From Candidatus Doudnabacteria bacterium (GTDB lineage: Bacteria; Patescibacteriota; Doudnabacteria; UBA920), in assembly GCA_003151625.1 (NCBI GenBank), contig PLYC01000007.1:81181-145180 (forward strand): DNA of 64,000 nucleotides. The letters are read 5' to 3'. The position numbers were made by a program, and so were the translations under genes. The notes under the pieces are model-generated. The model was given only the letters and a program-made list of their open reading frames with translations. It searched no databases and was not told the DNA's origin. Positions within the stretch are counted from its first letter, which is position 1. Every line of letters starts with the position of its first letter. Shown here piece by piece: positions 7,436 through 57,593 of the stretch.

Positions 7436-8758
7436 ATGCCCAAGACTCTAACAATTTTCGTTTGTTCTAATTGCCAATACAAAACTCCGCGCTGGCAGGG
7501 GAAGTGTCAGAATTGCGGGCAGTGGAATACTTTGGAAGAACAGAGGCAAATTTCCAATACCAAATTTCAAATGTCAAATGCGATGGCGCCGGTTGATTTA
7601 GCGTCGCTTGATGTGGATCAGAAGCCCCGGATAAAAACGGGTATTGGGGAATTTGACCAAGTGACCGGCGGCGGTATTGTTCCGGGAAGCCTGATTTTGC
7701 TCGGTGGTGATCCGGGCATTGGCAAATCCACTCTGGCCCTCCAGCTGGCAATGAAAATTGATGCGGAAGTTTTATATGTTTCAGGGGAAGAGTCGGTAAA
7801 CCAAATTAAACTCAGGGCACACCGTATAAATAAAGACCATCGGCTCAACGTTCTTGCCGAGATTTCGCTGGAAACAGTTTTGGCCAGCATCGCCGATCAG
7901 CATCCGGAACTGGTTATTGTCGACTCCATTCAGACAATGTACAGCGAGGAGGTCTCCGGCGTGGCCGGCGGAGTCTCCCAGGTTACCAATGCCGTTCAAC
8001 AAATAATGCGCCTGGCCAAGCAAAACCATATTTCTTTTATTGTTATTGGCCATGTTACCAAAGAAGGCTACTTGGCGGGTCCAAAAACCCTGGAGCATAT
8101 GGTGGATACGGTTTTATATTTGGAAGGGGAGAGGTTTGCCGCTTTTAGGATACTGCGTTGCGTAAAAAATCGTTTTGGCACGACTAATGAAGTCGGCGTG
8201 TTTGAAATGGCCGGAGTTGGGCTGGTGGAAGTTAAAAACCCGTCACAGTTATTTTTGGGCGAAGACAGCATAAAAGCCTCCGGAAACATAATTACTTCCA
8301 TTGTGGAGGGCAATCGCGCGTTGCTTTTGGAAATTCAGGCGCTGACATCGGTCACCAATTTTGGCTACCCAAAGCGCACTACGGCCGGGTTTGATTCCAA
8401 CCGCCTCCAATTGCTCACTGCCATATTAGGCAAGCGCGCGGGGCTGAATTTGAGCAATCAGGACATTTATATCAACGTAGTCGGCGGCCTAAAAATAGAC
8501 GAACCCGCGGCCGACTTAGCCGTAGCCTTAGCCATAGTTTCCAGTTTAAAAGATGTGATAATTCAGGACACCGTCGCGGTAGGCGAGCTCGGCCTCTCCG
8601 GCGAACTCCGTTTTGTGCCGAATTTGGAAAAACGGATTATTGAGGCGGAAAAATTAGGATTCAAAAAAATAATTTGTCCAAAAACAAAAATAACAGGAAA
8701 AAATAAAATTGAGGTCATTCAGGTTAAGACTTTGACGGAAGCTATAAGTAAACTGTAG
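7436..8758 (+). CDS. radA: DNA repair protein RadA/Sms
   Basis: N-terminal C4 zinc finger (CSNCQYKTPRWQGKCQNCGQW), RecA-like Walker A GDPGIGKST, KNRFG motif, and a Lon-like C-terminal domain. Confidence 0.95.
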   Translation: MPKTLTIFVCSNCQYKTPRWQGKCQNCGQWNTLEEQRQISNTKFQMSNAMAPVDLASLDVDQKPRIKTGIGEFDQVTGGGIVPGSLILLGGDPGIGKSTLALQLAMKIDAEVLYVSGEESVNQIKLRAHRINKDHRLNVLAEISLETVLASIADQHPELVIVDSIQTMYSEEVSGVAGGVSQVTNAVQQIMRLAKQNHISFIVIGHVTKEGYLAGPKTLEHMVDTVLYLEGERFAAFRILRCVKNRFGTTNEVGVFEMAGVGLVEVKNPSQLFLGEDSIKASGNIITSIVEGNRALLLEIQALTSVTNFGYPKRTTAGFDSNRLQLLTAILGKRAGLNLSNQDIYINVVGGLKIDEPAADLAVALAIVSSLKDVIIQDTVAVGELGLSGELRFVPNLEKRIIEAEKLGFKKIICPKTKITGKNKIEVIQVKTLTEAISKL

Positions 8759-8826
8759 TTGACCCATTTATGGGCTGTCCGATATATTTATTAGATTTTC
8801 CAGGAGATTGTTTCGGGATGTCCTTG

Positions 8827-8867
8827 CAGTTTCCCCTCCCTTTACGGGAGGGGCTAGGGGAGGGTGA
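8827..8867. repeat. REP-like palindromic element, family 1 (cagtttCCCCTCCCtt-N-acGGGAGGGGctaGGGGAGGGtga)
   Basis: Near-identical copies at 56811-56851 and 57465-57505. Variant copies lie in frame inside the PPDK_N gene. Confidence 0.8.
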
Positions 8868-9060
8868 TGAGTTTGCGATACCATATATAAATACAAGGAC
8901 CGAACGCAGCTCCACCACGTTCGGCCCTGTCAGGTTTCGGGAGCCCCTCGGTTCCCAAAACAAGCCTTTAAAAGCAAATTAGTTCACCCTGGAGCTATCT
9001 GTTAGCCGCACGGAGCTGGCGGCTATGGATGCACTAATTGGCTTTATGGGCTGTTGTGGT

Positions 9061-9603
9061 TTACTTACCCAGAAGTATCCAGCTGAACACAGATGGAGCC
9101 GATGGCATACCGCTCCGCACATTTGCCATTACATCTGGTTGATTCCGTAATACAGTTCGCCTTCTTCGTGGCGTTCTTTTGATTCCGAGGCCGTTTTCAA
9201 ACACTTTGGAGGTAGCAGCCGGAACATCTTCCGTTGGCGGTTCCGGTTCTACCCCTGATGCTTCGGCGGCTTTTACAATGTTGTCGCATCTTATACAATA
9301 CTGTGCCCAAGGTGCGGCATCCAGCCGTTTGAGTTGCAGGTCTTCCTTGCAGTGTGAGCATATGCCGTAGCTACCGTCGGCAATACGAGCCAACGCAGCT
9401 TTGACTTCCTGAAGAAGGACGCTGTCTCGTTTGAGGTTGAGGATGGCGAGTTCGCGTTCGCCAGCCAGTTGGACTTCATCGAGGGCATCGGGAACGCTTT
9501 GAATTGCGATCCCTGCCCTATTCCGGGGAGCCAACGAAAAGGATAACACTATCGCTTTGGCTTCCAGCATTGATTTGTATTTGTTGACTTCGGTTTGCGT
9601 CAT
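9061..9603 (-). CDS. DksA/TraR-family C4 zinc-finger protein (with C-terminal extension)
   Basis: CSHC...(17)...CIRC zinc-finger spacing and a preceding coiled-coil region typical of DksA/TraR. Local GC is higher than the surroundings. Confidence 0.55.
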   Translation of the reverse strand: MTQTEVNKYKSMLEAKAIVLSFSLAPRNRAGIAIQSVPDALDEVQLAGERELAILNLKRDSVLLQEVKAALARIADGSYGICSHCKEDLQLKRLDAAPWAQYCIRCDNIVKAAEASGVEPEPPTEDVPAATSKVFENGLGIKRTPRRRRTVLRNQPDVMANVRSGMPSAPSVFSWILLGK

Positions 9604-9716
9604 TTTTTTTCCGATCGGATTTCAACGAAGAGACGCCTGGTTCTAAACCACGCATCCTCCGTCAATTTAGAAAATTATGACATTTTTTATAATATGGTTT
9701 TTGGAATATCCAAAGT

Positions 9717-11954
9717 TTATTCGAAATGTACAACTTTACGTTTAATTTTCTCACTCAACAAAGGATATTTTTTCAAATTTTCATCGTCTTTAAGTAGGTT
9801 AATAGCCTCCTGCCTAGCAGGTTCAATTAGCGACGTATAAGATGGGTCAAAGTATTTAAAATTCCAGCCGGACTGGGTTTGGCCGTAAATTTCGCCAAAG
9901 CCCCGCTGTTTTAGGTCCAGTTCGGCCAGCTCAAAGCCGTCTTGGGTTTTGGTAAAAGCATTAAGGCGGGTGATAGTTTCGTTATTGGCATTATCTTTCA
10001 CCACCTCCCCCCGCTTCGCGGGGTACTCCTCCTTAGAAAAGGAGGAGAGGCTCCGCCTTTGTCCAGATGACGCGGATAACCGCGGAGCTTCCCCTCCTTC
10101 TTTAAGGAGGGGTGGACGCGAAGCGGACGGGGTGGTGTACCCTGAACCGGAATTTAATGATTGGTTCAGGGCTTTAGTCATAAACAAAAAGCAATAGCTT
10201 TGGTGCTCGGCGCGGCCAACCCGGCCGCGGAACTGGTGGAGTTGGGAAAGGCCAAAACGCTCCGCGCCTTCAATTAACATTACCGATGTATTGGGCACGT
10301 CCACGCCAACTTCCACTACAGATGTTGAAACTAAAATTTGGATTTTATTATCCAAAAAATCTTTCATCACACTTTCTTTTTCCGCACCTTTTAGTCTGCC
10401 GTGCATAAGACCAATGTTAAAATTGGGAAAGATTTTTTTTAAAAGGTCGACTTCGGCTTTTGCCGATTTAACGCCCAGTTTGTCCGACTCCTCAATTAAG
10501 GGAGTGATTACAAAGACCTGTCGGCCGGCGGTTATCTGCTTAGCTATAAACTCATAGGCTTTGGCGCGGTTCTCATTTGTTACCAATTTAGTAACTATTT
10601 GTTTGCGACCTAGAGGCTTGGTTTTAATTTGCGAAATATCCAGCTCGCCGTAAACAGCCAATTGCAGAGTGCGCGGAATTGGCGTGGCGGAAAGCGAAAG
10701 CAAATGAGGGACTTTTTTCGTATTTTCAAATAAAGCCGCCCGTTGGTCTACGCCAAAGCGGTGCTGTTCGTCTATAATTACCAAAGCGAGCTTTTTAAAT
10801 TTTATGTTTTTTTGCAACAATGCGTGTGTGCCAATATACAGTGCGGGCATGCCTTCGGCGAGAAGCTTGGTTAATTTGTCTTTTTTTTCCGGTTTGTTGT
10901 TGAGCAGGCAAAAATTTGCCGTAAGCAGAGCACACCTGGTATTAAAATTGGCTGGATTTTCACAAAACATTTTATGGGCGGTTTGGTAGTGCTGTTTAGC
11001 CAAAATTTCCGTGGGCGCCAAAAGTGCCACTTGAAAGCCTTCCGATACCGCCTGCAGGGCGGCTATTAGGGCGACCACGGTTTTGCCGCTTCCAACATCA
11101 CCTTCCAATAGCCGGTTCATAGGCATGGGTTTTTCTAAGTCCTGTAAAATATCCCAGGCGGCCTTTTTTTGTTCGACGGTCAGTTTAAAAGGCAGGCTAT
11201 CTACAAATTGTTTTATAAGTGACTGATTAAATTTAATCGGATAGCTTTGTTTTTTTGCCAACTCCAGTTTATGTTTTTGCGCTAACAGCTGGTTATAAAA
11301 TATTTCCTCAAACGCCAGGCGTTTTTTTGCCTCTGTGACATTCTGCTCGGTTTCCGGGAAATGAGACTGCTTAATAGTTTGCCTAATATCCATCAGCTTT
11401 TGATTTTTGATAATTTCCGCGGGTAACGATTCCGGCACTTCATCGGCAAGTCCAATAACAGAAGCGACCAAGTTGCGGAAAGTTTTTGGGTAAAGGCTTT
11501 GTTTAAGATGATAGAGCGGTACTAATCTGGACGTGTGGATAGGGAAGTCCGATGCCTTTTCGTAAATTGGGTTTGTCATTTGTAAACCAAAGTTGTAATA
11601 GTCCGCCTGTCCGGCTAAAAATATTTCCTCCCCGGCAATTAGATTTTTTGCCAAATACGGCTGATTAAACCAGACAACTTTAATAGAGCCGGTGTCGTCA
11701 CTGACAACGGCCTCGGCCAACATCAAATGGCTTTTAAAAGAAAACCGGCTGCTGATTTGTTTGATTTTTACTTTTAAACTGACGTTTTCGCCGGGCTTTA
11801 AATCGGCAATAACGCGGGTTTGTGAAAAATCCAGGTACCGGTATGGAAAATATAAAAGTAAGTTTTGGACGGAATCAAGTCCAAGTTTTTTTAAAGCCGC
11901 TAATTGCGGCTTTTGAAGTTTGGGAAGATTTTCGATGGGGGAATTGAGCTGCAT
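9717..11954 (-). CDS. recG: ATP-dependent DNA helicase RecG
   Basis: Wedge domain, Walker A GDVGSGKT, and DEQHRFG helicase motifs. It carries a ~50-aa low-complexity in-frame insertion encoded by a palindromic element. Confidence 0.9.
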   Translation of the reverse strand: MQLNSPIENLPKLQKPQLAALKKLGLDSVQNLLLYFPYRYLDFSQTRVIADLKPGENVSLKVKIKQISSRFSFKSHLMLAEAVVSDDTGSIKVVWFNQPYLAKNLIAGEEIFLAGQADYYNFGLQMTNPIYEKASDFPIHTSRLVPLYHLKQSLYPKTFRNLVASVIGLADEVPESLPAEIIKNQKLMDIRQTIKQSHFPETEQNVTEAKKRLAFEEIFYNQLLAQKHKLELAKKQSYPIKFNQSLIKQFVDSLPFKLTVEQKKAAWDILQDLEKPMPMNRLLEGDVGSGKTVVALIAALQAVSEGFQVALLAPTEILAKQHYQTAHKMFCENPANFNTRCALLTANFCLLNNKPEKKDKLTKLLAEGMPALYIGTHALLQKNIKFKKLALVIIDEQHRFGVDQRAALFENTKKVPHLLSLSATPIPRTLQLAVYGELDISQIKTKPLGRKQIVTKLVTNENRAKAYEFIAKQITAGRQVFVITPLIEESDKLGVKSAKAEVDLLKKIFPNFNIGLMHGRLKGAEKESVMKDFLDNKIQILVSTSVVEVGVDVPNTSVMLIEGAERFGLSQLHQFRGRVGRAEHQSYCFLFMTKALNQSLNSGSGYTTPSASRPPLLKEGGEAPRLSASSGQRRSLSSFSKEEYPAKRGEVVKDNANNETITRLNAFTKTQDGFELAELDLKQRGFGEIYGQTQSGWNFKYFDPSYTSLIEPARQEAINLLKDDENLKKYPLLSEKIKRKVVHFE
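9999..10137. repeat. Complex ~139-bp GC-rich palindromic element inserted in frame within recG
   Basis: Outer stem caccacctccccccgcttcgcg / cgcgaagcggacggggtggtg, with internal hairpins (ctcctcctt-agaaa-aggaggag; cccctcctt-cttt-aaggagggg; ccgcgg x2). Confidence 0.75.
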
Positions 11955-12014: not shown

Positions 12015-12091
12015 TGGTGTTCTCAGCGGGAGTCGGACCCACAACCTCAGCCTTCGGAGGGCTGCGCTCTATCCAGTTGAGCTATGAGAAC
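12015..12091 (-). tRNA. tRNA-Arg (anticodon CCG)
   Basis: Folds manually into a cloverleaf: acceptor GTTCTCA/TGAGAAC, D-arm GCTC-AACTGGATA-GAGC, anticodon stem CAGCC/GGCTG with loop CTCCGAA, T-arm GTGGG-TCCGACT-CCCGC, and an encoded CCA. Confidence 0.8.
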
Positions 12092-12733: not shown

Positions 12734-12822
<89 letters not shown>

Positions 12823-15037: not shown

Positions 15038-16102
15038 CTAAAGCATCGTAATCGGTCTGGACTGGGTAATATAGAATTTCCCGTTTTCAAAAGCCCACTC
15101 AATGTCCTGCGGTTTGCCGTAATGTGTTTCTATATTTTTGCAAATTTTGGCAATTTCCACTATTTGCTTGCCGGTAAGTTTTTGTTTGCCTCCGGTTGCC
15201 TTGTCTAATTTCTTATTTCTATTTCCTGTTTTCTCTCTTACTATGGCAAAAGTTTGCTCGGAAACATTTATGTCCAAAATGGAAAAATTGTTTTTGTGAA
15301 CAATATAAGTGTCCGGAGTAATCATGCCGCCGACAATAGCTTCTCCCAAACCAAAACCGGCTTCCACCACCATTTGGTTCTTGTCTTTGGTTACCGGGTG
15401 CACGGTAAAACTAATTCCGGAAACCTCGCTTTGCACCATCTTTTGCACCACAACCGCCACGGAAATCCTTGTGTTTATTCCCCTCCCTTGCTTGTCCGCC
15501 GTAGCTTTAGCGAAGGAGGGACGGGAGGGGTGGGGGGAGGGTGATTTTTTTGTTTTGTAAAACCCTTTCTCAAAAGCATAAAAAATTGCCCTGGGCGTAA
15601 ATAGCGAAGACCAGCATTTTTTTACACTGGCAATAACATTTTTTTCCGTTACATTCAAATAAGTTTCCAGCTCCCCGGCCCAGGAAGCAACCGATGAGTC
15701 CTCGGCCGTGGCGCTAGATCTAACGGCTACAAACTGGTTTATTCCCCTCCTGCCCGAGGAGGGGTTAGGGGAGGTGGGAGATTTTTTAAACAGCTGATGA
15801 TACGCCTCCATAATCTCTTTCTGCAAATCCTCCGGAATAACCTCATCCAAAATCATCCTGCGGATTTCCGCCGAAGCCTTGTCCACAGAATTAACATCCT
15901 TATGGTTGACTTTTTTCAGCAACGCCTCTATATCCGCCTCAATCTCCGTCTCCTCCAAAAATCTGTCAAAAGCACCCGCAACCACTACAAACCCTTGCGG
16001 CACCGGCAATCCCGCCTTAGTCATTTCCCCGAGCGAGGCTCCCTTGCCCCCAGCAATGTCGACATCTTTTTTTGAAATTTGCCCAAAAGTTTTTATGTGC
16101 AT
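15038..16102 (-). CDS. Stand-alone PPDK_N / PEP-synthase-type ATP-grasp (nucleotide-binding) domain protein, with two in-frame REP insertions
   Basis: GGKGASLGEM motif, VAVRSSATAED, VAVVVQKMV and DIEWAFENGKFYITQSRPIT, which are hallmarks of the PEP synthase / PPDK / rifampin-phosphotransferase ATP-binding domain. Extra segments SPTSPNPSSGRRGIN and KKSPSPHPSRPSFAKATADKQGRGINTR coincide with REP DNA. Confidence 0.8.
   Translation of the reverse strand: MHIKTFGQISKKDVDIAGGKGASLGEMTKAGLPVPQGFVVVAGAFDRFLEETEIEADIEALLKKVNHKDVNSVDKASAEIRRMILDEVIPEDLQKEIMEAYHQLFKKSPTSPNPSSGRRGINQFVAVRSSATAEDSSVASWAGELETYLNVTEKNVIASVKKCWSSLFTPRAIFYAFEKGFYKTKKSPSPHPSRPSFAKATADKQGRGINTRISVAVVVQKMVQSEVSGISFTVHPVTKDKNQMVVEAGFGLGEAIVGGMITPDTYIVHKNNFSILDINVSEQTFAIVREKTGNRNKKLDKATGGKQKLTGKQIVEIAKICKNIETHYGKPQDIEWAFENGKFYITQSRPITML
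15476..15544. repeat. REP family 1 variant (composite with the cgctaaagctacgg hairpin) inserted in frame in the PPDK_N gene
   Basis: ttattcccctcccttg...ccgccgtagctttagcgaaggaggg...acgggaggggtggggggagggtga. Confidence 0.75.
15738..15779. repeat. REP family 1 variant inserted in frame in the PPDK_N gene
   Basis: tttattcccctcc-tgcccga-ggaggggttaggggaggtggga. Confidence 0.7.
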
Positions 16103-16125
16103 AAAATTTTACTAAGCCGCCAAAT

Positions 16126-16548
16126 TCAGTTTTTCGTTAACGTGTAGGACAGGGTTATTGGGTGAATAATGGCGATATTGCGGAAATATTTAAGCTTTAG
16201 AAGATCTTTGTCCATGGTTACAATTAAATCCGCCCCTGAGGCCACGGCACATTCCAGAATTTTGTTGTCTTTGGAATTATTCTTTAAAAAAGTAATTTTT
16301 TCCTCGGGAAACATTAAATTAGGAACTTTTTTTACGAATTCCATAATTTGATTTTTTGTCAGTATGTTGACGATTTTTTCTTCCACAAGCCGTTTTGCGT
16401 TTTTTTCAACTTCTTCTATTATAGCTTCCGAAATAAACAGCGGGTACTCAAATGGCCTGCCCGATATTTTTAAAACCAAATCATAGCAAAAACTCCGCAT
16501 GCCTATGGCCGCAAGGTAGATGTTCGCGTCAAAAACTATCTTAAGCAT
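16126..16548 (-). CDS. PIN-domain toxin (VapC-like)
   Basis: 140 aa. N-terminal MLKIVFDANIY... with conserved acidic residues. Immediately downstream of a small RHH gene. Confidence 0.65.
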   Translation of the reverse strand: MLKIVFDANIYLAAIGMRSFCYDLVLKISGRPFEYPLFISEAIIEEVEKNAKRLVEEKIVNILTKNQIMEFVKKVPNLMFPEEKITFLKNNSKDNKILECAVASGADLIVTMDKDLLKLKYFRNIAIIHPITLSYTLTKN

Positions 16549-16554
16549 ATTGTT

Positions 16555-16794
16555 TTAGCCGAAGAATTTTTGGATATCTTCGTCGGTCTTTATCCCCAGC
16601 TTTTGGAATGCCGGACGCAGTACTGTCTGGATTTCATCAAGCTTTTGCTCAATAAGGTAGCTCCTTAAAGCCTGCTTAACAAGCTGGCTAAAGGTTGTGT
16701 CCTGTTTTATCGCCAATTTTTCAACATCGCTTTTCATATCATTGGGCAGGGAAATGCTGACATTGCTTGTTTGTTTTCTGTTGATAGCCTTCAT
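16555..16794 (-). CDS. Ribbon-helix-helix (CopG/VapB-like) antitoxin
   Basis: 79 aa. The beta-strand SISLPNDM followed by two helices fits an RHH fold. Lies 6 nt upstream of the PIN gene. Confidence 0.55.
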   Translation of the reverse strand: MKAINRKQTSNVSISLPNDMKSDVEKLAIKQDTTFSQLVKQALRSYLIEQKLDEIQTVLRPAFQKLGIKTDEDIQKFFG

Positions 16795-16858
16795 AAAAAT
16801 ATTTTAATAATTATTACACTGTAATAATATCAATATTAGAAATTGTTGTCAACCTACT

Positions 16859-16914
16859 GGTTAACAACTTTAGTATGCCTGAAAGATAGAAAGTTGTTAA
16901 CTAAGTTGTTAACT
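16859..16914. promoter_or_regulatory. Inverted/direct repeats gttaacaacttt / aaagttgttaac / aagttgttaac upstream of the RHH antitoxin gene (candidate operator)
   Basis: Perfect 12-bp inverted repeats plus a third direct half-site. Sits at the standard position for TA autoregulation. Confidence 0.45.
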
Positions 16915-18390
16915 TATTATTTTCCTAACAATTCCTTTATTTGCATCCACTTCCACCAATTCGCCGTCTTTAAAATTTTTCATAGCGTTGTTTAAGGCGA
17001 CAATGCAGGGAATGCCAAATTCTCGGGAAACAACTGCCGCGTGGCATGTTAGGCCGCCGACTTCGGTAATTATGGCCGCCGCGCGTTTCATTGCCGGAAG
17101 ATAATCGGTCGTCGTTGCGTAAGTAACTAATATATCGCCCTGTTTAACTTTGCCGTTGTCTTTGGGGTAGGGGACAATACGGATTTTTCCCGTGGCTTTT
17201 CCGGGACTGGCGCAAACCCCTTTATTTTCATCCCCACCCTGAACTGGCTTTACATAACTTTCTATGTACTTAAAAAGTTTTTCGGTTTCTTTGGCTGTAA
17301 ATTCAATCCGTTTTTGGATTTTTCTGTCAAAGCCCCAACCCGCGTATTTGCCCTTTTCTTGAAGCAGTTTAACGGTATCTATTTTTCCCAGTAAGGCTTC
17401 AATTAGTTCCTGTTCAGTTAAAGTCCGTAATTGATTAACAGACAAAAAAAGCCTTTTTGCTATTTCATCGTATAAAGGCAGTAAATAAAAACTCCCAAAG
17501 CTGACAAAATATTCCGCTTCGTTCCTGGTGTCAATGGCTAACCCAAAATCTGTAAATATTTGCAAGTCTTTGGGTTTAAATTTGTACTTATTAATTAAAT
17601 GTTTGATTTCTCGAGCCCTTATTTTAGTATAGTTTTTTATCTGCCCGTATTCTTTATTCAATAGATTCAAGGGCTTACTTAAGTTTACTTTTAGTTCTTG
17701 CTGGTAGTGTTTGGCTTGCCAAGGTTCGCCAAAAGTGAATACCGGTAACCAGCCAAATTTTTTAGCCAATTTTTTTGAAGCTTTATCTAAAGTTGTTGCA
17801 CCATTTTTTATACATAGTATTTCTTCGGTAACCGCCATTTTTTCTTTTAAGGTGGTTGACACTTCTTGTGGTTTGGTAAGTTTAAACAAAACTTGGTTAT
17901 AATCTTCGGAGCCTCTCCGTAGCCCGTATTTATTAACTAAAACTTTTTCCATTAAAGGTGGCCAGTATTCATCCCCAAGCCACGCGAACTGGTCATAAAC
18001 AGCCAGATGTTGAATACGATCGCGAATAAGGCGGAAGTGTTTAATTAGTTGCCAGTTAGTTAGTTTAGAAAAATCAATTTTTTTTGAAACATCTTTTTTT
18101 GATTTGGGAACCAAATTGTAGAAAGTTTTAAGCTTCTTTTCCATGCCTTTAAAATTTTTTGAAGATATCTTTCCAATCCGATTATGCAAGATCTCCAAAT
18201 AGCTTTTGGGCGTGTACATATGCTGGTAACCGTCAGCCAAAGTATGTATGGCTAAGTTGCCTTTGGGAATGCCAAAAAGCTTTTTAAAGTAATGATTCGT
18301 GTTCTCCCCGTGCCACGTTTCACTGTCCAGAGGCAACAAAGCCCATTGGCCCATTTTTACGACCTTGGTTTTAAAGTAGTGGTGTTTCAT
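16909..18390 (-). CDS. RPH/PEP-synthase-family protein: unknown ~390-aa N-terminal domain fused to a C-terminal PEP-utilizing-enzyme mobile (phosphohistidine swivel) domain
   Basis: C-terminus [26 protein letters not shown]...[10 protein letters not shown] is the PEP-utilizers His domain. No ATP-grasp or TIM-barrel domain is present. Paralogous to the adjacent gene. Confidence 0.7.
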
Positions 18391-19892
18391 AGTTTTTTTA
18401 CTATCCCTTTATTCGCGTCCACTTCCACCAAGTCGCCATCTTTTAAAATTTTAGTGGCGATTTTGGTGCCAATTACGCAGGGGATGCCGAGTTCACGGGA
18501 GACTATGGCGGCGTGGGAGGTTATGCCGCCTTGTTCTGTTACTATTGCTCCTGCCAGCTTCATCGCCGGTACTATATCGGGATCTGTTGCGATTGAAACT
18601 AAAATGTCTCCCTTGTTCATTTTGTGGATGTCCTTGGCGCGCAATATAAGTTTAACAACGCCTTTGGCATATCCCGGCTGGGCGGTTTGGCCTATCAGCT
18701 CTTTTTGGTTTTTATCAAAAATACGGCCTAAATTTTTGGTAAGTTTTTTTAAAGTTGAACCGGTATAAATGGCCTCAAAATCTTTTTCTGTGTAAAGAAC
18801 GCATTCTTTAAACCTATTTTGCAAGTCTTTTTTGCTTAAAATTTTACCTCTCAGCAACGCTTCCTTAACCTCGCCGTAAAGCATAAACTGGACTTGGTAG
18901 CGCGTGCGGTTAAGCCTTTTGGCTATTTCCGGCAATAGGGAAGTGTGCATTGAGTAAAGGCAAAACAGCTGGGCATGGCGGCGCACCAGTTTGGTTAAGG
19001 CAAAACCCTGGGCTGTGGTAAAAAGATTCCGGTATTGTTTGGAAATATTGTATTTTTTGTATATGGCCGCTTGTTTGTTTTTTGCTGATTTTAGTTGAGC
19101 CCTCTCTTTTTTTAATATTCCATTGGCGCTAATGCCGCTTGATGCCAAATCTTGCAGTTCTTTTAGGTAGTGCTCCGGACCAAATGGTTTTACATTCCCC
19201 GCGTAAATATAGCCTAAGTGCCCCCATTTGGCGCTGTGTATTTTTAAAGCCGTCTTAAATTCCTCGTCGGGTTTTTTGAGCGATTTTTTGTATTTATTAT
19301 AGATATTCAAAAAATCCTCCCTCTCCTGGGCGACTATGGTTTTTTGGGAGGGGGTGGTTAAAACAATAAAAGCATTTTCCGCGTCCTGTTTGCTGTCGCA
19401 AACCGAATACAGGTAGCTTTTTAGGTTTTTGGTAAAGTTATTATGGAACATATCTACAGCCACAGGCAGCCAGCCGTAGGTGTAGAGTTTGGTGTGAATT
19501 TTGTCCTGCTCCGCGTAAAGTTCCCAAAGATGCTTATTGGAGTATTTTTGCAATGGCAGTTTGGAAGTTTTTTTAGAAAAATTAATTAGGACGTAAGACC
19601 ATTTTAAAATATTTTCATTTAAATTTTTTCCAAAATTTGGCCTTGTGAGTAAAGCTTTTAGTACGCTCTCGCCGACCAAAAAAGAATCCTTTTCTCCCAA
19701 ATAAAAATCCATATGGAATTTTTTGTAATGGGTGAGGACTTTGCTGTAATTTTTTAGGAATGGGTAGCTGGTGTCGCTGCAAAAAGCCGACATTGGAATT
19801 TGGAAAAAGAACACATCGCTGTCCGGAATTTCCTCGGCCAACAGCCATGGGTCTTTGTCTTGTAAAAATTTTGGGGTGGGAGATTTGGGCAT
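18387..19892 (-). CDS. Paralogous RPH/PEP-synthase-family protein (unknown N-terminal domain plus PEP-utilizer His domain)
   Basis: C-terminus [26 protein letters not shown]...[13 protein letters not shown]. It overlaps the downstream paralog by 4 bp. Confidence 0.7.
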
Positions 19893-19909
19893 AATTGCAA
19901 CTCCATTCC

Positions 19910-20003
19910 GGCGTCATTCTGAGCGAGTGCATCCGAGCGAAGAATCTCTAACAAGAATGAGATCCTTCACCTTTCGGCTGCACTCAAGGTTCAGGATGAC
20001 GCC
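19910..20003. mobile_element. MITE-like nested palindromic element, family 2 (termini ggcgtcaTtctga ... tcaggatgacgcc)
   Basis: ~94 bp. A second copy lies at 60719-60809, with shared termini and inner gaagaatctcta...atgagatccttc...cggctgcactc blocks. No ORF is present. Confidence 0.65.
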
Positions 20004-20055
20004 GAAGTGAGAATAATACGCTATAAATATAGCAATATTAATGATTTTTCGCATA

Positions 20056-20085
20056 TTGACAGGAGAGGCTAAAATATGATATAAT
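20056..20085 (+). promoter_or_regulatory. Consensus sigma70-type promoter (TTGACA-18-TATAAT) reading into the GC-rich island
   Basis: ttgacaggagaggctaaaatatgatataat. Confidence 0.55.
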
Positions 20086-20315
20086 ATTAGGTTATAGCTT
20101 ATGCTATAAATTGCCCATTTTACAGGTTCAGGGCGATTTTTGGCTAACTATAATTCCCTCCTTCGCTAAAGCTACGGAGGGCAAGTGGGTTTTGAGGCTC
20201 TTTAACAATTTGAGGAAAACTTTATTCTCCTTTTGGGGGTACCGACGGCGATTGATTGCTTATGTAATCTGTTGCCATTGGTACCCCGAATTCTGAATTT
20301 CAATAGGAGAAGTTT

Positions 20316-21002
20316 ATGCGGTCCCCCGAAACGGCAGTTGAGATGCAAGAAAAGAAGTTTGAAATTCCGAGCGGCGTCGAGCGCGCCGTTCTAATGATTC
20401 GCCACTCGGTTGCGCCGAAAACGGGCACCGATGGCAACAAGACGCTGACGCTCGACGGCATGTATTTGTGTGAGGCTGTGCGGGAGTTCTACCAGAGTTT
20501 GGTATGTGATATCAGCGTCAGCCTCAACGTGCCCACGGCCTCGTATCACTGCTCTACGTTCCCCAGGTCCATGATGACGGCGTGGGAAATCTTCCGCGTC
20601 CCGAACATCCAGGCCGAAGAGTCGCTCAAGGTCTGGGTCTCGTTGATGTCTATCGACGGAGGCGCGTGGGCCAAGGCGCAGATGGCTGCGGGCAAGAACG
20701 AGCCGACGATGATCCGAGAGTTCCTCGGTGACCAGGGCGTGAGTTTGTGGACTGCCGACTTCGACGACTACCAACGCAACTACACCGAGTTCATTCTCGG
20801 CAACGTCGGTAGCGAAGAAGCTCGCAGAGCCAAGTTCGTGGTTGCGACGTGCCACGAGGCAGGCATTTCGCTGGCGGCCGCTGGTTGTCTGCTTGAGAAT
20901 GAGCTCGGCCTTAATAATTGCGAGGCGGTCCTCTTTTACGTCAGCGGCGGTTACGTCGTCGGTGCCGAGAAGATCGTGCCGGGAAAGGCCTCGGCTCGGT
21001 AA
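20316..21002 (+). CDS. Hypothetical protein in GC-rich island; possible histidine-phosphatase-superfamily member (RHS motif)
   Basis: Local GC ~57% against a ~43% background. AGGAGA ribosome-binding site. N-terminal ...VLMIRHSVAP... loosely resembles the RHG catalytic motif of the PGAM-like fold. The antisense 209-aa ORF is R-rich and is probably a shadow of this gene. Confidence 0.45.
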   Translation: MRSPETAVEMQEKKFEIPSGVERAVLMIRHSVAPKTGTDGNKTLTLDGMYLCEAVREFYQSLVCDISVSLNVPTASYHCSTFPRSMMTAWEIFRVPNIQAEESLKVWVSLMSIDGGAWAKAQMAAGKNEPTMIREFLGDQGVSLWTADFDDYQRNYTEFILGNVGSEEARRAKFVVATCHEAGISLAAAGCLLENELGLNNCEAVLFYVSGGYVVGAEKIVPGKASAR

Positions 21003-21241: not shown

Positions 21242-21333
21242 TGGCGGAGAGGGGGGGATTCGAACCCCCGAAAGGATTTGACTCCTTTACCGGTTTAGCA
21301 AACCAGCGCACTAGGCCTCTATGCGACCTCTCC
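21242..21333 (-). tRNA. tRNA-Ser (anticodon GCT)
   Basis: Acceptor GGAGAGG/CCTCTCC, anticodon stem-loop CTGGT-TTGCTAA-ACCGG, a long variable arm, T-loop GGGTTCGAATCCC, and an encoded CCA. Confidence 0.85.
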
Positions 21334-22240: not shown

Positions 22241-22266
22241 GTGTCCAATTCTATAGAATTGGACAC
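22241..22266. promoter_or_regulatory. 26-bp perfect palindrome gtgtccaattctatagaattggacac (candidate ArsR-family operator) overlapping the annotated GTG start
   Basis: A perfect dyad immediately upstream of the likely ATG (22277) of the ArsR-family gene. A near-identical dyad lies at 22573-22594. Confidence 0.6.
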
Positions 22267-22276
22267 AAAAAACAAA

Positions 22277-22555
22277 ATGAATAATAAAAATATCCACAAA
22301 TGGTCAAGGATTTTTAGAGGACTGGCTAACCCTCACCGTTTGGAAATGATAAAGCTTTTAAAGAAGAATGGTAAAACCGCGGTTTCGGTTTTGGCCAAAG
22401 AAGTGGGAATTTCCGTAAAAAACACCCCCCGGAATTTAAGAATATTACACGACTTGGAAATATTGGAGTCTTTGGGAAAATCGGACCATATTTTTTATAG
22501 TATTTATACCGGCCTGGATAAAGAAGTGAATTTGATTATAAAAATGTTTGCTTGA
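22277..22555 (+). CDS. ArsR/SmtB-family winged-helix transcriptional regulator
   Basis: LANPHRLEMIKLL matches the ArsR hallmark (LADPTRLxIL) followed by an HTH. The start is more likely ATG 22277 than the GTG at 22241 inside the operator. Confidence 0.7.
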   Translation: MNNKNIHKWSRIFRGLANPHRLEMIKLLKKNGKTAVSVLAKEVGISVKNTPRNLRILHDLEILESLGKSDHIFYSIYTGLDKEVNLIIKMFA

Positions 22556-22572
22556 ATGCTTTAGGCTTTGGT

Positions 22573-22594
22573 ATCCAATTCTATAGAATTGGAT
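22573..22594. promoter_or_regulatory. Second copy of the tccaattctatagaattgga dyad (22-bp perfect palindrome) between convergent arsR-like and comF genes
   Basis: atccaattctatagaattggat. Confidence 0.55.
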
Positions 22595-22605
22595 GCAAGA
22601 GAGTC

Positions 22606-56754: not shown

Positions 56755-56810
56755 AAAAGTTTTTATATAAAAATTGATTCCGTTTAGTTTTTTGCCATCA
56801 TGAACCCCTG

Positions 56811-56851
56811 TAGTTTCCCCTCCCTTAACGGGAGGGGCTAGGGGGAGGGTG
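56811..56851. repeat. REP family 1 copy
   Basis: tagtttcccctcccttaacgggaggggctagggggagggtg. Confidence 0.8.
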
Positions 56852-56960
56852 TAATACGATTTGAATAAAGAAAGGTGATGGGGTTTAGCGCAGTCTAAAC
56901 CCCTTGAGCGTGTAACTAACGGCAGAAAAGCTCTGCGGCCATTGGTTACGAAGAGCGAAA

Positions 56961-57419: not shown

Positions 57420-57464
57420 GAGACTGGTTTTACCAATCTTTTGCCAGCAAAGCGGTTTGTCCTG

Positions 57465-57505
57465 CAGTTTCCCCTCCCTTGACGGGAGGGGCTAGGGGAG
57501 GGTGA
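57465..57505. repeat. REP family 1 copy (followed by a ccgcc-ttcgctaaagctac-ggcgg hairpin at 57533-57560)
   Basis: cagtttcccctcccttgacgggaggggctaggggagggtga. Confidence 0.8.
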
Positions 57506-57593
57506 TTAAATTTAATTAAGCCTTATTCGTTATCCGCCTTCGCTAAAGCTACGGCGGATTGTTGCACTATTATTTTTTAATTAATGTGCAACA

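Follow-up and report, generated by a model that had tools for sequence, protein, structure and literature searches.

A cluster of genes at positions 15038 to 19892 of a 64-kb stretch of bacterial DNA (contig PLYC01000007.1; the whole stretch is called hereafter "the window") encodes what look like the parts of one phosphotransferase on separate polypeptides: an ATP-grasp protein, and two paralogous proteins, here named parA and parB, each ending in a phosphohistidine swivel domain. Which kind of enzyme do these three genes specify, and could a single ATP-grasp protein serve two partners? An earlier reading, made from the sequence alone, had proposed a rifampin phosphotransferase (RPH)-like module acting on two substrates, split into subunits and with a toxin-antitoxin (TA) pair wedged into it. 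The analysis reported here makes it likely that the three genes encode a multi-component, RPH-type "X, water dikinase", in which one ATP-grasp protein would serve two different adaptors.

The closest relatives of the locus belong to Candidatus Doudnabacteria (Patescibacteria, or Candidate Phyla Radiation, CPR). CPR bacteria and DPANN archaea make up a large share of microbial diversity, live on other cells and are devoid of many biosynthetic pathways. To our knowledge, the ways in which they capture and process host metabolites are largely unknown.

Two-component dikinases have been characterised in Rhodococcus (HpeHI), Corynebacterium (CreHI) and Thauera (the phenylphosphate synthase PpsAB), and use a pyrophospho-histidine mechanism (PMC12167813). 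With these precedents, a split RPH-like dikinase is not in itself new. The mechanism of RPH and its Arg666/Glu667/Lys670 site have also been described (PMC4844700).

Results

A probable RPH-like enzyme in three polypeptides

ORF calling showed the cluster to consist of five open reading frames (ORFs) arranged head to tail on the minus strand, with the boundaries first described, and the same gene order was found on an ENA metagenome scaffold. The three enzyme genes, in the order of transcription, are:

18387–19892, minus strand: parB, a 501-aa adaptor subunit with a helical N-domain of ~395 aa, predicted to resemble the rifampin-binding domain, and a C-terminal phosphohistidine swivel (His460); subfamily 0 of the classification given below.
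16909–18390, minus strand: parA, a 493-aa paralogous adaptor of subfamily 12, with a diverged N-domain and a swivel (putative catalytic His in GGLTCH).
15038–16102, minus strand: stand-alone ATP-grasp (PPDK_N) subunit, 354 aa (PF01326, E = 1.8e-97), with two in-frame repeat-derived inserts.

PPDK_N is the sole Pfam domain on the third protein, so that the ATP-grasp domain is encoded alone, as had been proposed. This protein keeps every invariant column in an alignment of 10 ATP-grasp sequences, nine of them stand-alone genes from other loci, including the GGKG-containing N-terminal motif and VAVRSSATAED. The two adaptor genes overlap by 4 bp (ATGA); over 441 aa, parA and parB share 33% identity (E = 7e-41). 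Both end in a PEP-utilizers swivel (PF00391, E about 1e-25 in each, 1.9e-25 for parA; residues 416–486 in parA and 426–496 in parB) with the motif GGxT(S/C)H, which reads GGLTCH in parA and GGITSH in parB. The preceding ~390 aa of both paralogs matched no Pfam family, in agreement with the sequence-only reading. A profile of this N-domain family had no match among PDB sequences, and the full-length paralogs matched such sequences in the swivel alone.

The cluster had also been said to lack the TIM-barrel domain that binds phosphoenolpyruvate (PEP) or pyruvate. This was borne out by tblastn: nowhere in the 64 kb was there a match to the PEP-utilizers_C region of a PEP synthase encoded in a related locus (L003) and verified with Pfam. 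The NCBIfam models of PEP synthase, RPH and PigC/RedH matched only the ATP-grasp or swivel parts, far below curated cut-offs, and PRK08296-type models aligned only to residues ~371–500 (the swivel and linker), the N-domain having no Pfam model.

The adaptor N-domain is predicted to have the RPH substrate-domain fold

The structure of parB was predicted from an alignment of 40 homologs (mean predicted local distance difference test, pLDDT, 93.4; predicted template-modelling score, pTM, 0.90), and the model was compared with the PDB using Foldseek. Six entries of Listeria RPH led the list (E from 4e-15 to 1e-12, query TM-score up to 0.56); the remaining matches had TM-scores of at most 0.20 and covered the swivel only. 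This ranking indicates that the N-domain modelled for parB, which precedes the swivel, folds like the rifampin-binding domain of RPH. The N-domain of parA alone was aligned to the parB-family profile by hhalign with a probability of 97.7% (E = 2e-12, 288 columns), and is by this alignment homologous to that of parB. The RPH-family-like set of ATP-grasp, substrate-binding and swivel modules, split over polypeptides with every domain intact, was thus recovered much as first described.

Many related loci pair arrays of adaptors with a single ATP-grasp

Related loci were retrieved with parB as the query in a scan of one genome per species. At least 570 stretches encoded such proteins; 80 loci were kept, and were annotated by our own ORF calling and phmmer labelling. 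Their hosts span many CPR phyla as well as DPANN archaea. Several records of metagenome-assembled genomes carried taxon labels, for instance "uncultured Gammaproteobacteria", that were not trusted and were left unused.

Two or more adaptor paralogs were present in 52 of the 80 loci, with a maximum of ten (L038), and bacterial loci with full 10-kb flanks held 5.3 paralogs on average. Family genes lay on one strand almost without exception (296/297). A stand-alone ATP-grasp gene was found in 34 of the 80 loci, always on the same strand as the adaptors, and none of the 80 had two; the same-strand cluster of adaptors with exactly one ATP-grasp gene is thus kept in relatives. This gene followed the array in 20 loci, preceded it in 7 and was enclosed by it in 6, often 3–11 bp from an adaptor gene.

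Natural fusions link the same modules. Two proteins of about 820 aa (P0082 and P0142) have the RPH order, ATP-grasp, N-domain, His swivel, and a class of ~770 aa (P0181, P0188) has the order N-domain, His swivel, ATP-grasp, which mirrors the gene order at this locus. Two polyproteins, both continuous ORFs under genetic code 11, combine one ATP-grasp domain with two successive N-domain/swivel units, placed after it in L013 (1313 aa) and before it in L041 (1389 aa), and P0149 (2309 aa) carries four swivel domains and one PPDK_N. These fusions are the strongest evidence that one ATP-grasp may serve several adaptors. Together with the synteny, and in both domain orders, they support a functional coupling of the ATP-grasp protein with the paralogs as an RPH-like module, the pairing that had been suggested from the window.

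Clustering of the N-domains of 242 adaptors at 38% identity gave 102 subfamilies. Except in L044 and L075, no array contains the same subfamily twice, and several subfamilies recur across genomes; the paralogs are therefore ancient and distinct, not recent duplicates. Subfamily 0, that of parB, was present in every retrieved locus, partly by construction, since parB served for the retrieval, and its universality is therefore not claimed. Identity within it is 40–70% from Doudnabacteria to DPANN archaea. The N-domain profile matched 2,759 representatives of 50%-identity clusters at E ≤1e-3, 1,443 at ≤1e-10 and 241 at ≤1e-30.

Conservation is unevenly distributed along the adaptors, as measured on 206 proteins of 72 subfamilies. 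In the swivel, H460, R466, E467 and P471 occurred in 100% of the subfamilies and the mean top-residue fraction was 0.65. The corresponding fractions in the N-domain were 0.16–0.33, and only R304 (82%), R326, E341, R360 and L178 were common to at least 80% of the subfamilies; its conserved charged positions are R304, R326, E341, R360 and K301. The strong conservation of the swivel is compatible with a docking partner common to the adaptors. A few conserved charges in an otherwise variable N-domain would fit a constant phosphotransfer site combined with diversified substrate pockets, and the family-wide pattern, conserved swivel and hypervariable N-domain, is consistent with the earlier idea that the paralogs act on two substrates.

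Most archaeal loci had just one parB-like gene, with a gene for an HTH_10 regulator in front of it (11 loci). This bacterio-opsin-activator-like gene stands beside the parB-like gene in L039, L045, L055, L068, L069, L072, L073, L075, L078, L079 and L081, and in most of these DPANN loci it is the next gene upstream, with the same orientation, which suggests dedicated transcriptional control. A gene for a VirD4/TrwB-like type IV coupling ATPase lies near arrays in 10 loci (L004–L058; e.g., L034, 8033–9967), at a distance of no more than two genes from a family gene in 7 of these. Other recurrent neighbours are genes for riboflavin kinase (6 loci), CTP synthase (7) and NAD(P)HX dehydratase (6). 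These four recurrent neighbours may reflect functional linkage or lineage synteny.

Phosphatase genes accompany the arrays

Histidine-phosphatase-like genes, either Pfam-supported (His_Phos_1) or identified by an RHG motif only or on weaker evidence, flank arrays in 20 of 81 loci. HAD_2 genes are inside arrays in 13, and one or the other type was found in 26. In the close relative L082, P0275 (704 aa; positions 7615–9729 of that locus) joins a 92%-identical ortholog of parB to a C-terminal HAD domain in one continuous ORF. This fusion and the phosphatase neighbours argue that the phospho-products would be pathway intermediates, and against a pure antibiotic inactivation.

A candidate phosphatase gene is also found next to the operon in the window:

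20316–21002, plus strand: divergent 228-aa ORF, candidate member of the histidine-phosphatase superfamily, which recurs beside arrays.

Its homologs adjoin arrays in L008, L018, L019 and L082, with the divergent synteny conserved. The protein has no Pfam match; it has invariant R29-H30, R84 and H180 with a histidine-phosphatase-like spacing. As its structure model was of low confidence (pLDDT 61), the assignment leans on motifs and synteny, and it is possibly a very diverged histidine phosphatase. The 2-kb bin holding this ORF has a G+C content of 0.47, versus 0.38–0.41 in the two operon bins.

Repeat-derived inserts in the ATP-grasp gene

The ATP-grasp protein is ~43 residues longer than the shortest orthologs, a difference due to two in-frame inserts, each matching a copy of a GC-rich repeat:

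15736–15786, no strand assigned: repeat-element copy, in-frame insert at residues ~106–123 (SPTSPNPSSGRRGINQ); repeats D1 and D2.
15491–15552, no strand assigned: repeat-element copy, in-frame insert at residues ~184–205; repeats D2 and I6.

The first adds ~16 residues, in a loop where the orthologs of L004, L005 and L057 have other inserts. The second (KSPSPHPSRPSFAKATADKQGRGINTR) is 27 aa in full, reaching residue ~208, and is unique to this gene in the alignment; the near-identical P0278 shares it. P0278 retains both inserts with an open frame, and has a third one inside the GEMTKAGLPVP stretch, just past the glycine-rich ATP-binding motif. Related copies of the GC-rich palindromic repeat (CCCCTCCC...GGGAGGGG / AGCTTTAGCGAAGGAGGGA) were found at 8825–8875, 20155–20185, 56809–56859 and 57463–57513 of the window.

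A lineage-specific TA cassette splits the operon

Between parA and the ATP-grasp gene lie:

16824–16913, minus strand: TA promoter and operator-like region (TTGACA-17-TATTAT and GTTAACAAC repeats), with a presumed regulatory function.
16555–16794, minus strand: RHH (ribbon-helix-helix, CopG-like) antitoxin, 79 aa (RHH_1, E = 7.4e-6, above cut-off).
16126–16548, minus strand: PIN-domain toxin, 140 aa (PIN_3, E = 9.9e-9; TIGR00305, 41 bits against a cut-off of 29).

The PIN/RHH pair thus sits where it had been placed, between the ATP-grasp gene and the paralogs, and PIN_3, TIGR00305 and RHH_1 all scored above their cut-offs. The RHH gene is directly upstream of PIN, at a distance of 6 nt. The palindromic operator attributed to the pair is also predicted by our analysis: a promoter-like site (TTGACA-17-TATTAT, 16852–16824) that is TG-extended and agrees with the consensus at 11 of 12 positions, three operator-like GTTAACAAC sites, two direct and one inverted (16860–16871, 16890–16901 and 16903–16913), and a related palindrome (16845–16868) that spans the -35 box.

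The pair was missing from this position in the orthologous loci L002, L004, L005 and L082. In the first three, nothing is inserted between the adaptors and the ATP-grasp gene. In L082, exactly the same slot holds a different cassette of three genes (DUF4325/HATPase_c_2, DUF5674 and an unknown gene). This distribution identifies the TA pair as a lineage-specific insertion, unrelated to the enzyme and no part of it, at what the comparison of loci marks as an insertion hot-spot.

L082 also illustrates the local dynamics of the cluster. Its DNA is 97% identical to the window across the sigma-factor and ATP-grasp flank, and 88% across parB. In the order of transcription it encodes the parB::HAD fusion, a parA ortholog, a third paralog that appears split (350 + 128 aa), the three-gene cassette and the ATP-grasp gene. 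Its parA ortholog is only 64% identical, and 55% in the N-domain, versus 88–97% for the flanks.

In the window the ATP-grasp gene starts 23 bp downstream of PIN, and the sole terminator-like match in between is the operator palindrome itself. With no separate terminator 3' of PIN, the ATP-grasp gene is probably transcribed from the TA promoter, by read-through, or both.

Leader hairpin, promoter and neighbouring genes

The sequence-only reading had placed a miniature inverted-repeat transposable element and a consensus promoter at the 5' end of the operon. The features found there are:

19904–20009, minus strand: imperfect palindrome of ~106 nt in the operon leader; inverted repeat with a predicted RNA fold, single copy.
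20056–20085, plus strand: sigma-70 promoter that matches the consensus at 12/12 positions, has an extended -10 and points to the divergent 228-aa gene.

The hairpin is real and very stable (dG -58.7 kcal/mol, z -6.4), and its 3' arm ends beside the parB Shine-Dalgarno sequence (GGAG). No second copy was found in the window or in the 81 loci, public collections being outside the search; its mobility is therefore not shown, and the mobile-element part of the claim is unsupported. The leader hairpin may affect transcription or translation of the operon. As for the promoter, the 12/12 match stands, with the opposite orientation: it is on the plus strand, faces away from the operon and, from its direction, serves the 228-aa gene, not the dikinase operon.

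Neighbours of the locus include a sigma factor, the TA pair, tRNAs and the phosphatase-like gene. The genes for tRNA-Arg(CCG) (12015–12091), tRNA-Ser(TGA) (12734–12822) and tRNA-Ser(GCT) (21242–21333) flank the region within ~3 kb; the long inverted repeat I1/I4 is due to the pair of tRNA-Ser genes. A RecG-like helicase (9717–11954) has a low-complexity insert of ~50 residues (…SGSGYTTPSASRPPLLKEGGEAPRLSASSGQRRSLSSFSKEEYPAKRGEVV…), which resembles another repeat-derived in-frame insertion. A 28-bp palindrome (GTGTCCAATTCTATAGAATTGGACAC) is found at both ends of a 104-aa ArsR-like helix-turn-helix ORF (22241–22555): one copy (22241–22268) overlaps the start codon, and the other (22571–22598) is just beyond the stop. 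A defence-system reading of the enzyme genes was considered and dropped, as PADLOC matched none of them to a defence system.

Discussion

A proposed shared ATP-grasp and two adaptors

By analogy with RPH and HpeHI/PpsAB, we infer the catalytic steps, the sharing of the ATP-grasp subunit and the nature of the substrates, beyond what the gene and domain content, fold, synteny, fusions and conservation pattern display directly. The ATP-grasp subunit, presumably the shared ATP-dependent "charger" of both swivel domains, would bind ATP and load its beta,gamma-pyrophosphoryl moiety onto the histidine of the swivel (His460 in parB, that of GGLTCH in parA). Hydrolysis of the gamma-phosphate would yield AMP and Pi. 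The swivel would then swing back to its own helical N-domain, where the beta-phosphate would move to a hydroxyl of the small molecule bound there. Given their different N-domains, parA and parB are proposed to phosphorylate two different substrates. The PIN/RHH pair would be a selfish element whose insertion parted the ATP-grasp gene from the adaptor genes, and its promoter may now aid ATP-grasp transcription.

Several observations weigh against this scheme. The ATP-grasp gene is parted from the adaptors by the TA cassette and has a weak ribosome-binding site, and the two repeat-derived inserts could impair the function of its product. Within 10 kb, an ATP-grasp gene was found for only 13 of the 21 bacterial loci with full flanks and for 1 of the 20 archaeal loci; therefore the partner is often elsewhere, or something else charges the swivel. 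The association with phosphatases concerns just about one third of loci. The structure model covers parB only, and profile searches found no sequence-level match of the N-domain to the rifampin-binding domain of RPH: the hidden Markov model (HMM) alignment with Listeria RPH (RPH-Lm) begins at profile position 329, opposite RPH residue 700, and R304 falls near RPH ~670 in the HMM register, too coarse a placement to equate it with Arg666/Glu667 residue by residue.

Comparison with known systems

The nearest known systems are HpeHI, CreHI and PpsAB. There too, the genes are adjacent, one polypeptide has the ATP-grasp and the other an RPH-like substrate domain with a C-terminal swivel histidine, and the same ping-pong conversion of ATP to AMP, Pi and X-P through a pyrophospho-histidine may be presumed. 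In contrast to them, one ATP-grasp gene accompanies two adaptor paralogs here, and up to ten in relatives; the hosts are CPR and DPANN organisms, and aromatic-catabolic genes were not found nearby; the recurrent neighbours are HAD and histidine-phosphatase genes, HTH_10 and the VirD4-like ATPase rather than carboxylases; and polyproteins and permuted fusions exist in the family. RPH-Lm itself (PDB 5FBS, 5FBT, 5FBU and 5HV1) is a single chain of 867 aa with 14–16% identity to the present proteins, whose N-domain is shorter (~390 aa) and in which the rifampin-contacting residues are untraceable; a role in resistance is doubtful given the phosphatase neighbours. For the ATP-grasp and swivel, sequence similarity is highest to PEP synthase and pyruvate-phosphate dikinase, which share the His motif, with up to ~50% identity between the swivel and an archaeal PEP synthase (8A8E), but here the TIM barrel is missing, the domains come in another order and the fold of the substrate domain is unrelated. 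PigC, RedH and HapC share the RPH-like layout of three modules, with weak model matches; unlike the present proteins, they are single-chain ligases of biosynthetic context that release no phosphoester. The TA pair itself is ordinary and VapBC-like, with its small RHH gene directly upstream of PIN, its own promoter-like site and repeated palindromic sites; its position inside a dikinase operon is what distinguishes it.

We found no description of the multi-adaptor arrays, polyproteins, CPR/DPANN distribution or phosphatase linkage in the literature, searched mostly outside subscription journals, which is no proof of absence.

Possible role and alternative explanations

What would such an enzyme be for? 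Of the roles considered, the most likely one, though given somewhat less than an even chance overall, is that scavenged small metabolites are transiently activated or trapped by phosphorylation, in pathways to which the neighbouring phosphatases also belong. Antibiotic inactivation is less likely. If the adaptors were RPH-like resistance kinases, each inactivating one antibiotic or toxin of the host or community, it would make sense that RPH is the sole solved structure with this fold, that rph-like genes are counted in CPR resistome surveys (PMC8651080) and that arrays turn over fast, the N-domain of parA being 55% identical against 88–97% for the flanks, as expected of an environment-facing function. 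However, phosphatases encoded in or beside arrays, one of them fused to a parB ortholog, would reverse the inactivation; a resistance determinant would not usually be preserved, as subfamily 0 is, at 40–70% identity between Doudnabacteria and DPANN archaea; and similarity to the substrate-binding residues of RPH is missing at the sequence level. We regard this explanation as unlikely. More improbable still is a ligase of the PigC/RedH type, in which phosphoryl transfer would activate a carbonyl or hydroxyl for condensation and the products would be coupled molecules. The layout of ATP-grasp, substrate domain and swivel is the same, and NCBIfam models match both regions, but far below cut-offs and limited to these shared ATP-grasp and swivel parts, and biosynthetic genes were not found in the window or in conserved neighbourhoods. 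CPR genomes also have a minimal secondary metabolism.

Equally hard to credit is a protein-directed phosphorelay, in which the N-domain would bind a protein partner, as Enzyme I does HPr, and the swivel would hand over its phosphate. Residues 338–494 of parB align weakly with the N-terminal domain of Enzyme I, including part of its helical subdomain (E about 1e-6), SixA-like histidine phosphatases act on phospho-His proteins, and histidine-phosphatase-like genes adjoin arrays. Yet whole-protein fold matches to Enzyme I span only ~100 swivel residues, the match to RPH is far stronger, and no HPr-like gene was seen among the recurring neighbour clusters examined. A decaying locus, with an ATP-grasp broken by repeat inserts, uncoupled by the TA insertion and useless in this genome, would explain the two in-frame insertions and the altered L082 cluster, with its HAD fusion, apparently split third paralog and other cassette. 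It is also very unlikely: all three enzyme ORFs are full-length, the invariant ATP-grasp columns are kept, the inserts borne by other orthologs at the first site indicate a tolerant loop, and the nearly identical P0278 keeps both inserts with an open frame. A split PEP synthase or pyruvate-phosphate dikinase of central carbon metabolism, the identity suggested by the best sequence matches of the ATP-grasp and swivel, is effectively refuted by the missing PEP-utilizers_C TIM barrel in the 64 kb; moreover, the modelled parB N-domain has the RPH substrate-domain fold, NCBIfam PEP synthase scores are far below cut-off, and the relative L003 has a complete, separate PEP synthase.

A possible phosphorylation platform of CPR and DPANN

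The dikinase with shared ATP-grasp, which we prefer to these alternatives, lends itself to a broader, and tentative, extension. The family might be a combinatorial phosphorylation platform of CPR and DPANN organisms, in which one charger would drive 2–10 anciently diverged adaptors through their almost identical swivels, each adaptor with its own small molecule, with dedicated HAD and histidine phosphatases. In reduced genomes such as these, it would replace a battery of conventional kinases in trapping or activating host-derived metabolites, and would owe its presence in both radiations to horizontal transfer. The window would then show its minimal, two-adaptor version. We consider this picture possible but doubtful.

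In any case the window is a small example of a family whose arrays, in CPR bacteria and DPANN archaea, reach ten such subunits, and it extends the two-component dikinase subfamily, described only in 2025, well past aromatic catabolism. The principle of "one engine, many adaptors" would provide a natural modular kinase scaffold, with a swappable substrate subunit facing a constant ATP module, of interest for enzyme engineering. With ~2,760 representatives, no Pfam model for the substrate domain and arrays of up to ten paralogs per ATP-grasp, the family stands out as a major and unexplored enzyme system of these organisms.

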